Source: Nemertoderma westbladi
Taxonomy: Eukaryota > Animalia > Xenacoelomorpha
Direction of reading: 5' to 3'
Assembly: GCA_032718475.1 (NCBI GenBank)
Contig: JAUCBJ010007042.1
Location: forward strand, 1 to 64,000
DNA length: 64,000 bases
Positions 1 to 35,028 of the stretch are shown piece after piece. The translations under genes were made by a program, and so were the position numbers. The notes beneath the pieces are model-generated. The model made no database searches and was not told the origin of the DNA. It saw only the letters and a program-made list of their open reading frames with translations. Each line of letters begins with the position of its first letter. Position 1 is the first letter of the stretch.

Positions 1-3000
1 TGTTTTTAGGATGGCTCACAGCCGCCTACTACCTACGGATTCTCATTAAATCGCTTTGTTTTTAGGATGGCTCACAGCCGCCTACTACCTACGGATTCTC
101 ATTAAATCGCTTTGTTTTTAGGATGGCTCACAGCCGCCTACTACCTACGGATTCTCATTAAATCGCTTTGTTTTTAGGATGGCTCACAGCCGCCTACTAC
201 CTACGGATTCTCATTAAATCGCTTTGTTTTTAGGATGGCTCACAGCCGCCTACTACCTACGGATTCTCATTAAATCGCTTTGTTTTTAGGATGGCTCACA
301 GCCGCCTACTACCTACGGATTCTCATTAAATCGCTTTGTTTTTAGGATGGCTCACAGCCGCCTACTACCTACGGATTCTCATTAAATCGCTTTGTTTTTA
401 GGATGGCTCACAGCCGCCTACTACCTACGGATTCTCATTAAATCGCTTTGTTTTTAGGATGGCTCACAGCCGCCTACTACCTACGGATTCTCATTAAATC
501 GCTTTGTTTTTAGGATGGCTCACAGCCGCCTACTACCTACGGATTCTCATTAAATCGCTTTGTTTTTAGGATGGCTCACAGCCGCCTACTACCTACGGAT
601 TCTCATTAAATCGCTTTGTTTTTAGGATGGCTCACAGCCGCCTACTACCTACGGATTCTCATTAAATCGCTTTGTTTTTAGGATGGCTCACAGCCGCCTA
701 CTACCTACGGATTCTCATTAAATCGCTTTGTTTTTAGGATGGCTCACAGCCGCCTACTACCTACGGATTCTCATTAAATCGCTTTGTTTTTAGGATGGCT
801 CACAGCCGCCTACTACCTACGGATTCTCATTAAATCGCTTTGTTTTTAGGATGGCTCACAGCCGCCTACTACCTACGGATTCTCATTAAATCGCTTTGTT
901 TTTAGGATGGCTCACAGCCGCCTACTACCTACGGATTCTCATTAAATCGCTTTGTTTTTAGGATGGCTCACAGCCGCCTACTACCTACGGATTCTCATTA
1001 AATCGCTTTGTTTTTAGGATGGCTCACAGCCGCCTACTACCTACGGATTCTCATTAAATCGCTTTGTTTTTAGGATGGCTCACAGCCGCCTACTACCTAC
1101 GGATTCTCATTAAATCGCTTTGTTTTTAGGATGGCTCACAGCCGCCTACTACCTACGGATTCTCATTAAATCGCTTTGTTTTTAGGATGGCTCACAGCCG
1201 CCTACTACCTACGGATTCTCATTAAATCGCTTTGTTTTTAGGATGGCTCACAGCCGCCTACTACCTACGGATTCTCATTAAATCGCTTTGTTTTTAGGAT
1301 GGCTCACAGCCGCCTACTACCTACGGATTCTCATTAAATCGCTTTGTTTTTAGGATGGCTCACAGCCGCCTACTACCTACGGATTCTCATTAAATCGCTT
1401 TGTTTTTAGGATGGCTCACAGCCGCCTACTACCTACGGATTCTCATTAAATCGCTTTGTTTTTAGGATGGCTCACAGCCGCCTACTACCTACGGATTCTC
1501 ATTAAATCGCTTTGTTTTTAGGATGGCTCACAGCCGCCTACTACCTACGGATTCTCATTAAATCGCTTTGTTTTTAGGATGGCTCACAGCCGCCTACTAC
1601 CTACGGATTCTCATTAAATCGCTTTGTTTTTAGGATGGCTCACAGCCGCCTACTACCTACGGATTCTCATTAAATCGCTTTGTTTTTAGGATGGCTCACA
1701 GCCGCCTACTACCTACGGATTCTCATTAAATCGCTTTGTTTTTAGGATGGCTCACAGCCGCCTACTACCTACGGATTCTCATTAAATCGCTTTGTTTTTA
1801 GGATGGCTCACAGCCGCCTACTACCTACGGATTCTCATTAAATCGCTTTGTTTTTAGGATGGCTCACAGCCGCCTACTACCTACGGATTCTCATTAAATC
1901 GCTTTGTTTTTAGGATGGCTCACAGCCGCCTACTACCTACGGATTCTCATTAAATCGCTTTGTTTTTAGGATGGCTCACAGCCGCCTACTACCTACGGAT
2001 TCTCATTAAATCGCTTTGTTTTTAGGATGGCTCACAGCCGCCTACTACCTACGGATTCTCATTAAATCGCTTTGTTTTTAGGATGGCTCACAGCCGCCTA
2101 CTACCTACGGATTCTCATTAAATCGCTTTGTTTTTAGGATGGCTCACAGCCGCCTACTACCTACGGATTCTCATTAAATCGCTTTGTTTTTAGGATGGCT
2201 CACAGCCGCCTACTACCTACGGATTCTCATTAAATCGCTTTGTTTTTAGGATGGCTCACAGCCGCCTACTACCTACGGATTCTCATTAAATCGCTTTGTT
2301 TTTAGGATGGCTCACAGCCGCCTACTACCTACGGATTCTCATTAAATCGCTTTGTTTTTAGGATGGCTCACAGCCGCCTACTACCTACGGATTCTCATTA
2401 AATCGCTTTGTTTTTAGGATGGCTCACAGCCGCCTACTACCTACGGATTCTCATTAAATCGCTTTGTTTTTAGGATGGCTCACAGCCGCCTACTACCTAC
2501 GGATTCTCATTAAATCGCTTTGTTTTTAGGATGGCTCACAGCCGCCTACTACCTACGGATTCTCATTAAATCGCTTTGTTTTTAGGATGGCTCACAGCCG
2601 CCTACTACCTACGGATTCTCATTAAATCGCTTTGTTTTTAGGATGGCTCACAGCCGCCTACTACCTACGGATTCTCATTAAATCGCTTTGTTTTTAGGAT
2701 GGCTCACAGCCGCCTACTACCTACGGATTCTCATTAAATCGCTTTGTTTTTAGGATGGCTCACAGCCGCCTACTACCTACGGATTCTCATTAAATCGCTT
2801 TGTTTTTAGGATGGCTCACAGCCGCCTACTACCTACGGATTCTCATTAAATCGCTTTGTTTTTAGGATGGCTCACAGCCGCCTACTACCTACGGATTCTC
2901 ATTAAATCGCTTTGTTTTTAGGATGGCTCACAGCCGCCTACTACCTACGGATTCTCATTAAATCGCTTTGTTTTTAGGATGGCTCACAGCCGCCTACTAC

Positions 3001-4545
3001 CTACGGATTCTCATTAAATCGCTTTGTTTTTAGGATGGCTCACAGCCGCCTACTACCTACGGATTCTCATTAAATCGCTTTGTTTTTAGGATGGCTCACA
3101 GCCGCCTACTACCTACGGATTCTCATTAAATCGCTTTGTTTTTAGGATGGCTCACAGCCGCCTACTACCTACGGATTCTCATTAAATCGCTTTGTTTTTA
3201 GGATGGCTCACAGCCGCCTACTACCTACGGATTCTCATTAAATCGCTTTGTTTTTAGGATGGCTCACAGCCGCCTACTACCTACGGATTCTCATTAAATC
3301 GCTTTGTTTTTAGGATGGCTCACAGCCGCCTACTACCTACGGATTCTCATTAAATCGCTTTGTTTTTAGGATGGCTCACAGCCGCCTACTACCTACGGAT
3401 TCTCATTAAATCGCTTTGTTTTTAGGATGGCTCACAGCCGCCTACTACCTACGGATTCTCATTAAATCGCTTTGTTTTTAGGATGGCTCACAGCCGCCTA
3501 CTACCTACGGATTCTCATTAAATCGCTTTGTTTTTAGGATGGCTCACAGCCGCCTACTACCTACGGATTCTCATTAAATCGCTTTGTTTTTAGGATGGCT
3601 CACAGCCGCCTACTACCTACGGATTCTCATTAAATCGCTTTGTTTTTAGGATGGCTCACAGCCGCCTACTACCTACGGATTCTCATTAAATCGCTTTGTT
3701 TTTAGGATGGCTCACAGCCGCCTACTACCTACGGATTCTCATTAAATCGCTTTGTTTTTAGGATGGCTCACAGCCGCCTACTACCTACGGATTCTCATTA
3801 AATCGCTTTGTTTTTAGGATGGCTCACAGCCGCCTACTACCTACGGATTCTCATTAAATCGCTTTGTTTTTAGGATGGCTCACAGCCGCCTACTACCTAC
3901 GGATTCTCATTAAATCGCTTTGTTTTTAGGATGGCTCACAGCCGCCTACTACCTACGGATTCTCATTAAATCGCTTTGTTTTTAGGATGGCTCACAGCCG
4001 CCTACTACCTACGGATTCTCATTAAATCGCTTTGTTTTTAGGATGGCTCACAGCCGCCTACTACCTACGGATTCTCATTAAATCGCTTTGTTTTTAGGAT
4101 GGCTCACAGCCGCCTACTACCTACGGATTCTCATTAAATCGCTTTGTTTTTAGGATGGCTCACAGCCGCCTACTACCTACGGATTCTCATTAAATCGCTT
4201 TGTTTTTAGGATGGCTCACAGCCGCCTACTACCTACGGATTCTCATTAAATCGCTTTGTTTTTAGGATGGCTCACAGCCGCCTACTACCTACGGATTCTC
4301 ATTAAATCGCTTTGTTTTTAGGATGGCTCACAGCCGCCTACTACCTACGGATTCTCATTAAATCGCTTTGTTTTTAGGATGGCTCACAGCCGCCTACTAC
4401 CTACGGATTCTCATTAAATCGCTTTGTTTTTAGGATGGCTCACAGCCGCCTACTACCTACGGATTCTCATTAAATCGCTTTGTTTTTAGGATGGCTCACA
4501 GCCGCCTACTACCTACGGATTCTCATTAAATCGCTTTGTTTTTAG
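1..4545 (+). repeat. 56-bp tandem array (~81 copies, runs off the window start) made of a 3' splice site plus the first ~33 nt of the following CCP110 exon
   Basis: Unit tgtttttag|gatggctcacagccgcctactacctacggattctcattaaatcgctt, period 56, no variant copies seen. The last copy continues into unique coding sequence (gatggctcgcagccgccaaccacctctggattc...). Confidence 0.97.
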
Positions 4546-33600: not shown

Positions 33601-35003
33601 TTAGGCAGTAGCGTATCAGTAAGTAGAAGCTGTCGGAGTGGGGCACCTGTAGGGATTGGTTGAGGGAGTATAATCAAGAGTTAGGCAGTAGCGTATCAGT
33701 AAGTATAAGCTGTCGGAGTGGGGCACCTGTAGGGATTGGTTGAGGGAGTATAATCAAGAGTTAGGCAGTAGCGTATCAGTAAGTATAAGCTGTCGGAGTG
33801 GGGCATCTTTACGGATTGGTTGAGGGAGTATAAATAAGAGTTAGGCAGTAGCGTATCAGTAAGTATAAGCTATCGGAGTGGGGCACCTGTAGGGATTGGT
33901 TGAGGGAATATAAACAAGAGTTAGGTTGTAGCGTATGGCACCTGTAGGGATTGGTTGAGGGAGTATAAATAAGAGTTAGGCAGTAGCGTATCAGTAAGTA
34001 TAAGCTGTCGGAGTGGGGCATCTTTACGGATTGGTTGTGGGAGTATAATCAAGAGTTAGGTTGTAGCGTATGGCACCTGTAGGGATTGGTTGAGGGAGTA
34101 TAAACAGCGGTTAGGCACTAGCGTATCAGTAAGTAGAAGCTGTCGGAGTGGGGCATCTTTACGGATTGGTTGTGGGAGTATAATCAAGAGTTAGGTTGTA
34201 GCGTATGGCACCTGTAGGGATTGGTTGTGGGAGTATAAACAGCGGTTAGGCACTAGCGTATCAGTAAGTAGAAGCTGTCGGAGTGGGGCATCTTTACGGA
34301 TTGGTTGTGGGAGTATAATCAAGAGTTAGGTTGTAGCGTATGGCACCTGTAGGGATTGGTTGTGGGAGTATAAACAGCGGTTAGGCACTAGCGTATCAGT
34401 AAGTAGAAGCTGTCGGAGTGGGGCATCTTTACGGATTGGTTGTGGGAGTATAATCAAGAGTTAGGTTGTAGCGTATGGCACCTGTAGGGATTGGTTGATG
34501 GAGTATAAATAAGAGTTAGGCAGTAGCGTATCAGTAAGTAGAAGCTGTCGGAGTGGGGCACCTGTAGGGATTGGTTGAGGGAATATAAACAAGAGTTAGG
34601 TTGTAGCGTATGGCACCTGTAGGGATTGGTTGAGGGAGTATAAATAAGAGTTAGGCAGTAGCGTATCAGTAAGTAGAAGCTGTCGGAGTGGGGCACCTGT
34701 AGGGATTGGTTGAGGGAGTATAAACAAGAGTTAGGTTGTAGCGTATGGCACCTGTAGGGATTGGTTGAGGGAGTATAAATAAGAGTTAGGCAGTAGCGTA
34801 TCAGTAAGTATAAGCTGTCGGAGTGGGGCATCTTTACGGATTGGTTGTGGGAGTATAATCAAGAGTTAGGCTGTAGCGTATGGCACCTGTAGGGATTGGT
34901 TGTGGGAGTATAAACAGCGGTTAGGCACTAGCGTATCAGTAAGTATAAGCCATCGGAGTGGGGCCTCTTTACGGATTGGTTGTGGGAGTATAAACAAGAG
35001 TTA
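30614..35003 (-). repeat. 80/81-bp and 55-bp tandem array made of the GRAMD1 3' splice site plus exon start, filling the last intron
   Basis: Minus-strand unit ttgtttatattccctcaaccaatccctacag|gtgccccactccgacagcttctacttactgatacgctactgcctaactc (encodes VPHSDSFYLLIRYCLT). A 55-bp internal-deletion variant often alternates, giving a 135-bp period. Confidence 0.95.
30846..31692. mobile_element. hAT-superfamily MITE inserted in the array
   Basis: Termini tagggatgtgccgga / tccggtaaaccccta. 8-bp TSD gttgaggg (30838-30845, 31693-31700). Subterminal ccggaattccgg repeats, AT-rich noncoding interior. Confidence 0.85.
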
Positions 35004-35028
35004 ATATAATTTGATAATAAATACTAAC

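Follow-up and report, generated by a model that had tools for sequence, protein, structure and literature searches.

Mirage-type minisatellites straddling splice junctions in two genes of Nemertoderma westbladi

Results

Two genes with junction-spanning arrays

The window analysed here, picked for the pattern described below, comprises positions 1-64,000 (64 kb) of contig JAUCBJ010007042.1 from the Nemertoderma westbladi assembly GCA_032718475.1. Tandem repeats occupied 36,828 of its 64,000 nt (58%, with 19632-22437 counted as one block), and ARAGORN found no tRNA in it. Arrays were delimited with TRF, after which splice-like sites were enumerated within the window. Of eight sequencing runs listed, none as RNA, X1-X5 were compared with the window; we treated run X3 as RNA on the grounds that it carries spliced contigs absent from the DNA-type runs X2 and X4. 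All spliced contigs came from this single run, which represents an individual other than that of the assembly. Two genes were modelled, with six and two introns, respectively, two of these introns being cut by the window ends (Table 1). RNA-type contigs backed a junction in four of the eight introns, while the other four were predicted.

Table 1. Features of the two genes and of the repeats in the window
Feature	Positions	Strand	Description
Array 1	1-4581 (TRF 1-4578)	+	56-nt acceptor-spanning unit; runs past window start
Gene 1 exon A	4546-4800	+	255 nt; spliced X3 contig, open frame
Gene 1 exon B	4931-5152	+	222 nt; IQ-like motif; used donor 5152/5153; X3 contig
Array 2	5143-8680	+	59-nt donor-spanning unit, TRF period 59
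Gene 1 exon C	8868-8987	+	Partner of 5152 donor; X3 loose end 29/30 nt, open frame
Gene 1 exon C2, predicted	9277-9359	+	Sole candidate restoring the frame under the filter used
Gene 1 exon D, predicted	10035-10403	+	Open frame, AG/GT ends
59-nt array	10638-11758	+	Entirely within predicted gene 1 intron, no junction touched; internal control
Gene 1 last coding exon, predicted	12123-12189	+	Ends at stop codon
Gene 2 last coding exon	29650-30662	-	C-terminal VASt part; stop at about 29703-29705; used acceptor 30663/30662
Array 3a	30614-30845	-	81-nt acceptor-spanning unit, 32 intron + 49 exon nt
Dispersed insert splitting array 3	30846-31692		847 bp; 8-bp target-site duplication (GTTGAGGG); TAGGG...CCCTA ends
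Array 3b	31693-35003	-	80-/55-nt variants of array 3a unit, higher-order patterns; 46 decoy acceptors
Gene 2 upstream exon	35029-35221	-	193 nt; middle VASt part; donor 35029/35028
47-nt array	36073-51185		15 kb; presumably within next gene 2 intron; internal control (assumed)

The identity of gene 1 was approached by several searches. Its word-based search returned no match, the comparison with PDB only weak IQ/myosin matches and chance sigma-factor matches, and Atlas gave IQ-type leads, all below 0.9; the Pfam IQ hit of exon B (E 0.0024) fell below the cut-off. As a candidate only, the product may resemble the C-terminus of centriolar CP110. Gene 2 is Aster/GRAMD1-like, its upstream exon matching Pfam VASt positions 43-99 (E 2.1e-06) and its last coding exon positions 103-151 of 152 (E 5.7e-11). 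For the VASt piece, a word-based search found no match and a full HMMER search gave 201 hits; the eight best, from several animal phyla, were looked up and showed 29-36% identity, and five of these bore the Aster/GRAMD1 name. Beyond 35221 the window revealed no additional upstream exon for gene 2, and a candidate ORF there lacked any Pfam match. Likewise, no exon was found at either end of the 47-nt array.

The initial annotation had described three unrelated arrays straddling real exon-intron boundaries in three of eight visible introns, and the TRF periods (56, 59 and 81/80/55), the gene models and the X3 splice contigs at those junctions bear this out. The units are minisatellite-sized, arranged head-to-tail, and consist of 36 + 20, about 10-16 + 45 and 49 + 32 nt of exon- plus intron-derived sequence in arrays 1, 2 and 3, respectively.

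Array 1 contains 82 acceptor sites spaced exactly 56 nt apart, the last being the used acceptor 4545/4546 and the other 81 being decoys within the window. Its full units are identical (81/81), and every decoy retains the core motif of the used site (81/81). The homogeneous interior contrasts with a diverged edge copy: the exon-like part differs from the real exon at 6 of 36 nt, three of them synonymous third positions. All three decoys tested produced a frameshift or a stop.

Array 2 contains 60 donor-like sites from 5153 to 8632, that is, the used one and 59 decoys, each of which gives a frameshift or a stop. Here too the edge copy is set apart from a homogenised interior, and the two ends of the array share a nearly matching stretch of about 10 nt. 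The motif CAG/GTGAGT is intact in 33 decoys and altered in 26, mostly at -1 or +2, and -1 is the most variable column of the unit. Counted as distinct alleles, donor changes were not significant: 6 of 23 alleles fell in the 9 motif columns out of 59 (P = 0.13), and the motif is preserved in one of those six.

Array 3 had been annotated as one acceptor array at 30614-35003. It does straddle the junction, but it is not continuous, as the 847-bp insert splits it. Many contigs with other flanks end at 30846 and 31692, and this insert is presumably a hAT-like non-autonomous element. A separate 60-nt duplication at 31673-31793 straddles a transposon end, not a splice junction. Together, both parts of array 3 hold 49 acceptor-like sites (30662 to 34966) at intervals of 81, 80 or 55 nt, and 37 of the 48 decoys among them retain the core motif of the used site. 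The first decoy equals the edge copy over 81 nt without any difference. Two decoys, 30743 and 30824, keep the frame without a stop and would add 27 and 54 aa; the translation check placed the stop at positions 383, 410 and 437. The proposal that such arrays expand introns also stood, since the introns grew from 63 to 4366 nt (array 3) and from 236 to 3715 nt (array 2).

The reverse order of events, in which both splice site and exon edge came from an earlier satellite through exonisation of its end copy, would fit array 1, whose exon-like part codes low-complexity sequence with no family hit and differs from the exon as described. In contrast, the exon part of array 3 is conserved VASt sequence, and the three units are mutually unrelated. 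We consider this order extremely unlikely.

An origin of the arrays as assembly artefacts, by collapse or over-extension of repeats, was weighed against the short-read contigs. None of these spans any of the three arrays end to end, and the identity of the array 1 units puts its exact length beyond a check from the window. However, two samples, each from a different study, contained the repeat units in their DNA contigs, those of array 1 in runs X1, X2 and X4. In X2, one array 1 unit contig reached a depth of 3657.7 as compared to 12.9-17.4 for unique contigs (depth is not read here as copy number), and units of arrays 1 and 2 were found attached to their unique flanks. In the gene 1 region the coverage by X1 was confined to repeat units, and in the gene 2 region X5 covered 7 of 30 bins; neither run was informative. 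With structured unit variants in arrays 2 and 3 as well, an artefact is scarcely credible.

The terminal copies are used in the main transcripts

X3 yielded one spliced contig per gene, breaking at 4545/4546 and 5152/5153 in gene 1 and at 30662/30663 in gene 2. The gene 1 contig had a 130-nt GT..AG intron removed and loose ends at 4545 and 5157; the sequence beyond 5157 matched window positions 8873-8902 in 29 of 30 nt. Similarly, the loose end of the gene 2 contig behind 30666 matched 35033-35062 in 30 of 30 nt. The main mRNA contig of each gene in this run therefore carries the authentic end copy, and transcripts join exactly at the junctions that had been proposed. The claim that the terminal copy is always the functional one is confirmed for these contigs, while its "always" is largely survivorship, because the tested decoys of arrays 1 and 2 give a frameshift or a stop. 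The view that junction-spanning duplications are tolerated is supported as well.

The decoys are likely near-silent. Decoy-only sequence had no X3 contig, with depth 0 at 4480-4533, 5182-5270 and 30730-30801 (exons 345.6 and 432.5), a value that is not evidence of silence, since contigs lose rare variants and NMD would hide array 1 and 2 products. As judged from their reading frames, transcripts spliced at decoys of arrays 1 or 2 would be expected to enter NMD.

These features could also suit a rheostat, in which low, copy-number-dependent decoy use leads to NMD (arrays 1 and 2) or to extra 27-aa VASt repeats on Aster (array 3), with selection acting on decoy strength. The two in-frame, stop-free decoys of array 3a, the 26 altered donors of array 2 and the premature stops in arrays 1 and 2, by which use would be hidden through NMD, speak for it. 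Moreover, two pseudo-donors, the nearest ones, are described as used in human CBS and 6-16 (PMC1557585), so that decoy silence is not guaranteed. Against it, the principal contig of each gene is spliced at the terminal site, the donor changes fall short of significance as distinct alleles, the decoys closest to the used site are unaltered in arrays 1, 2 and 3, and the F7 pseudo-sites are reported there not to compete. Altogether, we regard a rheostat as distinctly improbable.

Straddling and intron geometry

With arrays collapsed, the six complete introns measure 130, 236, 289, 675, 657 and 63 nt. The 81-nt unit exceeds the 63-nt intron, so that array 3 had to straddle. A geometric null gave P = 0.16 for two of three arrays when only the complete introns were counted, P = 0.045 (3 of 5) or 0.023 (3 of 6) once the two introns cut by the window ends were given assumed sizes, and P = 0.001 with transposon DNA counted as target. 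Given the host intron, P was 0.13, with array 3 forced and two of the four probabilities assumed. P values for straddling beyond geometry thus range from 0.001 to 0.16 with the assumption made, in a window selected for the pattern; no genome-wide test of junction bias was among the matches listed by our literature searches.

Minisatellites might truly be born more often at splice junctions, through damage linked to transcription or splicing or through splice or branch motifs acting as microhomology, the decoys then being functionless. TAACTC occurs at both ends of array 3 and appears to resemble a branch-site motif, a point in favour of such a bias. So are the three straddling cases among five to six intronic arrays (P 0.001-0.045 with the two cut introns) and the occurrence of similar repeats in at least four amphioxus gene types. 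Nevertheless, the complete introns alone and the calculation given the host intron offer P values of 0.16 and 0.13, the window was chosen for its pattern, and the null expectation rises because the seeds probably arose in introns shorter than those of today. We hold this mutational bias, whichever its source, to be rather unlikely.

Discussion

The three arrays belong to a kind already described, the "mirage" minisatellites, and the suggestion of a system not previously known is not sustained: the same repeat type has been published for amphioxus and human genes (PMC3087553, PMC3902484, PMC1557585). Amphioxus mirages are reported in Adh3, the globins BflGb6 and BflGb9, troponin C and PGBD5 (PMC3087553, PMC3902484). 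As in N. westbladi, a single genome has several genes whose intron-exon boundaries, at donors as well as acceptors, are covered by tandem units; the mRNA is described as normal, which matches the joining of the terminal copy in our X3 contigs, and a homogenised interior is flanked by diverged edge copies, as in array 1 (PMC3087553). Copy numbers are far higher here, with 48, 59 and at least 81 versus 3 and 6 in BflGb6 (PMC3087553), and the 81 identical units of array 1 and the in-frame decoys of array 3, which is split by a transposon-like insert, are further differences. Human boundary-spanning repeats include the 37-bp VNTR of F7 intron 7, 6-16 (IFI6), CBS intron 13, LMNB2 and PDGF intron 4; in the F7 type, a first unit over the exon-intron boundary is followed by identical pseudo-donors and the most upstream is used, as in array 2, although the cases presented there are confined to the donor side with 5-25 copies, whereas ours occur on both sides with more copies (PMC1557585). 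In CBS c.844_845ins68, the last 52 intron and first 16 exon nt are duplicated, the second acceptor is used and the extra piece is spliced out; this is a single duplication, whereas ours are amplified arrays (PMC7490669).

Likely, the arrays began as short tandem duplications of an ordinary kind, were tolerated and later underwent amplification, a by-product of such duplications in small introns. Slippage or microhomology repair between two short stretches of similar sequence would first have duplicated the 56-81 nt in question. Microhomology-mediated tandem duplications have short matching ends, are mostly neutral and are depleted from coding DNA; they are a general mechanism, and the words "splice" and "intron" are absent from the main text of that work (PMC13167724). 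With repeats over 58% of the window, seeds are common. Exon-internal coding duplications would be purged and junction-crossing ones would survive, because the copy adjoining the unique exon still yields the full frame; where introns are small, many of the duplications that survive would have to cross a junction. Unequal exchange may then amplify and homogenise the inner copies and spare the edge copy. In the main product, the site next to the full exon is the one taken, the first donor or the last acceptor, presumably by choice of the spliceosome. The VASt profile continues over the junction (43-99, then 103-151), so that this exon is older than array 3. We counted terminal junction use, this VASt continuity, the end microhomologies, the short collapsed introns, the wealth of tandem repeats with a duplication even at a transposon end, the edge divergence of array 1 and the intact nearest decoys for this explanation, and a geometric null that does not fully absorb the count, the 26 of 59 altered donors, the use of the nearest pseudo-donors in human 6-16 and CBS and the reliance on one X3 run from another individual against it.

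Intron gain by AG/GT duplication was rejected, as no array combines donors with acceptors and the other intron end is unique DNA. Tandem repeats at exon-intron boundaries have been published as a source of intron gain (PMC2812944) and likewise lie at gene-structure boundaries, but here existing introns have grown and no new intron was seen. A far-reaching combination, with junction birth beyond geometry, hundreds of perfect decoys, a copy-number dial on productive splicing, a 27-residue VASt ladder on the sterol transporter Aster and decoy donors eroded by selection, is in our judgement unlikely.

The arrays represent a known oddity in a clean and extreme form and can be used as a natural experiment. 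In practice, gene predictors and spliced aligners are misled by arrays of this type. Since the last of the 82 acceptors of array 1 is used, a 5'-to-3' scanning model (PMC1557585) is insufficient alone. That the last acceptor is chosen among at least 82 whose intronic sequence is identical speaks for 3' splice site selection from the exon side, here in an animal with short ancestral introns.

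Junction-spanning arrays in two genes

The three arrays were located in two genes (table below), whose models give eight introns, two of them truncated by the window ends, as the initial annotation had counted. The six exons modelled for gene 1 form a single open frame with a weakly matching IQ motif, and its product may resemble CP110. Gene 2 is, by sequence likeness, an Aster/GRAMD1 relative, and five of the eight best hits looked up carried Aster or GRAMD1 names. Positions 32201-34399 and 36801-50599 were examined only with TRF and scripts.

Array 1 carried 82 acceptor sites at 56 nt spacing, with all 81 full units identical, each made of 20 nt of intron and 36 nt resembling the exon start (6 mismatches to the exon). 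Array 2 contained 60 donor-like sites, and 33 of its 59 decoys retained CAG/GTGAGT while the others presented CAA (17), GC (6) or other changes (3). Among the 49 acceptor-like sites of array 3, interrupted by an 847-bp dispersed element flanked by an 8-bp target-site duplication, the decoys read CAG/GT (37 of 48) or AAG/A (11).

Features of the window by position
Feature	Position	Strand	Description
Array 1	1-4581	+	acceptor array
Array 2	5143-8680	+	donor array
Array 3	30614-35003	-	acceptor array
Gene 1 exon	4546-4800	+	open frame
Gene 1 exon	4931-5152	+	open frame
Gene 1 exon	8868-8987	+	open frame
Gene 1 exon	9277-9359	+	open frame
Gene 1 exon	10035-10403	+	open frame
Gene 1 exon	12123-12189	+	open frame
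Gene 2 exon	35221-35029	-	VASt profile positions 43-99
Gene 2 exon	30662 onward	-	VASt profile positions 103-151
G/C run	4849-4873		one of several intronic poly-G or poly-C runs (15-28 nt); 7 nt shorter in X2
37/30-nt array	12861-14649		downstream of gene 1 stop, acceptor-like unit (CTAAC ... TTTTAG/G); possibly a fourth junction-spanning array lying in a UTR, or a chance match
Foldback-like element	19632-22437		68-nt array between two simple-repeat arms of opposite orientation (81% complementary over as much as 200 nt)
22-nt array and reading frame	26000-27415	-	array ends at an AG immediately preceding a very acidic, degenerate frame interrupted by stops; probably a pseudogene or decayed element
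Perfect duplicate	30614-30775		first decoy unit of array 3 identical to the working unit (81 nt)
CTAAC	30695-30700	-	branch-site-like, roughly 36 nt 5' of the array 3 acceptor in use
847-bp element	30846-31692		non-autonomous, high-copy, 8-bp target-site duplication; presumably hAT-like; family pieces present in RNA-type run X3
60-nt tandem duplication	31673-31793		straddles the 847-bp element end and an array unit
SINE, likely	35480-35625	-	in gene 2 intron; tRNA-like head (no tRNA called there by ARAGORN), then a stretch we take to be SINE core-like
LTR retrotransposon	53700-64000	-	long gag-pol-like frame continuing past the window end; presumably Bel/Pao-like

The arrays are real. Units of arrays 1 and 2 were found in contigs from the public sequencing runs X1, X2 and X4, which represent two samples and two studies, and X2 contigs linked unique flanks to units of both. 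For the array 1 unit, an X2 contig reached a depth of 3657.7, compared to 12.9-17.4 in unique contigs, which would correspond roughly to 200 copies or more somewhere in that genome, as an estimate from depth rather than a measured copy number. Outside the window, a single-copy X2 contig (record 10) joined unique DNA to an array 1 unit at a phase inside the exon-like part, and probably represents the far end of the array, its flank extending over 447 nt or more. At the edge of array 3, a contig of X2 whose depth indicates a single copy (19.8 vs 17.7) was compatible with one such unit only; this is a weak hint that the perfect duplicate arose recently or is private.

Terminal splice sites are joined in transcripts

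RNA status was on record for none of the eight runs; nonetheless, X3 contained spliced contigs. The one from gene 1 (depth 345.6) lacked a 130-nt GT..AG intron that the DNA-type runs X2 and X4 kept. Beyond 4545 this contig departed from the window and continued in non-repeat sequence; beyond 5157 it continued in the exon at 8868 (29 of the next 30 letters matching). The gene 2 contig (depth 432.5) passed from 30666 into the exon at 35029 (30/30). The few surplus matched bases past the junctions reflect chance similarity between the start of the intron and the partner exon. Therefore, the joined sites were the last acceptor of array 1, the first donor of array 2 and the last acceptor of array 3. 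These contigs, one per gene, bear out the initial annotation in that all three units straddle real exon-intron boundaries, that 4545/4546, 5152/5153 and 30663/30662 are used, and that the functional site is the end copy touching unique exon. X3 came from a different individual than the assembly, and contigs are blind to rare splice products.

The CTAAC, which we take to match the branch-site consensus, lay in exon-derived sequence of the unit next to the working one, inside the microhomology; the adjacent copy may be needed for splicing.

Probable origin of the arrays and possible effect of the decoys

Microhomology-mediated tandem duplication would provide the seed of such arrays. TAACTC stood at both ends of the 81-nt unit of array 3, and the two ends of array 2 shared a nearly matching stretch about 10 nt long, the footprint expected of this process. 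Such duplications are described as mostly neutral and rarer in coding DNA (passages of PMC13167724). Without array 2 its intron measured 236 nt, and the gene 2 intron, without array 3 and the insert, measured 63 nt; since the 81-nt unit exceeds this length, array 3 had to straddle. Tandem repeats made up 58% of the window. Seeds also fall on other boundaries, because the 60-nt duplication crosses a transposon end and the arrays at 10638-11758 and 36073-51185 touch no modelled junction.

We compared the straddling with a geometric null (uniform seed placement, exon-only seeds dropped, arrays collapsed), which predicts straddling for 25% of the tolerated seeds across the six complete introns. 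Because the window was selected for this pattern, none of the resulting P values is an unbiased test: 0.16 for the 2/3 observed in those introns, 0.045 (3/5) or 0.023 (3/6) when the two cut introns were added at assumed sizes, 0.001 when transposon DNA was counted as target, and 0.13 conditional on the host intron, the straddling of array 3 being taken as forced (two probabilities assumed). A modest true excess may exist. Among the papers listed by our literature searches, there was no genome-wide enrichment test.

The use of the end copy is largely survivorship, since a frameshift or stop follows from each of the 59 array 2 decoys and from the three array 1 decoys closest to the used site. 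Array 3 is the exception, as decoys 30743 and 30824 are in frame, their predicted products being longer by 27 or 54 residues. These in-frame sites in the Aster gene, together with the 26 altered donors among the 59 decoys of array 2, would fit decoys that matter for splicing or expression, and pseudo-donors are used in human CBS and 6-16 (passages of PMC1557585). However, the main transcript product was the regular junction, the nearest decoys were intact, and donor changes counted as distinct alleles (6/23 in 9/59 columns) were not significant (P = 0.13); moreover, F7 pseudo-donors did not compete in minigenes (same passages).

Relation to known systems

Altogether, the initial observation is confirmed and its interpretation partly supported. 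Novelty is not supported, as the class has been described. Amphioxus 'mirages' are tandem repeats across both types of exon-intron boundary, with homogenised interiors and undisturbed splicing, and have been suggested as a path to intron gain (PMC3087553; passages of PMC3902484). Human donor-side examples include F7, 6-16, CBS, LMNB2 and PDGF (passages of PMC1557585), and CBS 844ins68 is an acceptor-side case with one duplication (passages of PMC7490669). The passages available of a catalogue of splicing-linked repeats (PMC10078293) did not deal with a junction-spanning class. Boundary repeats are viewed as a source of new introns in those of PMC2812944. Compared to the amphioxus and human cases, the present arrays are set apart by their scale and by the predicted in-frame ladder in the Aster gene.
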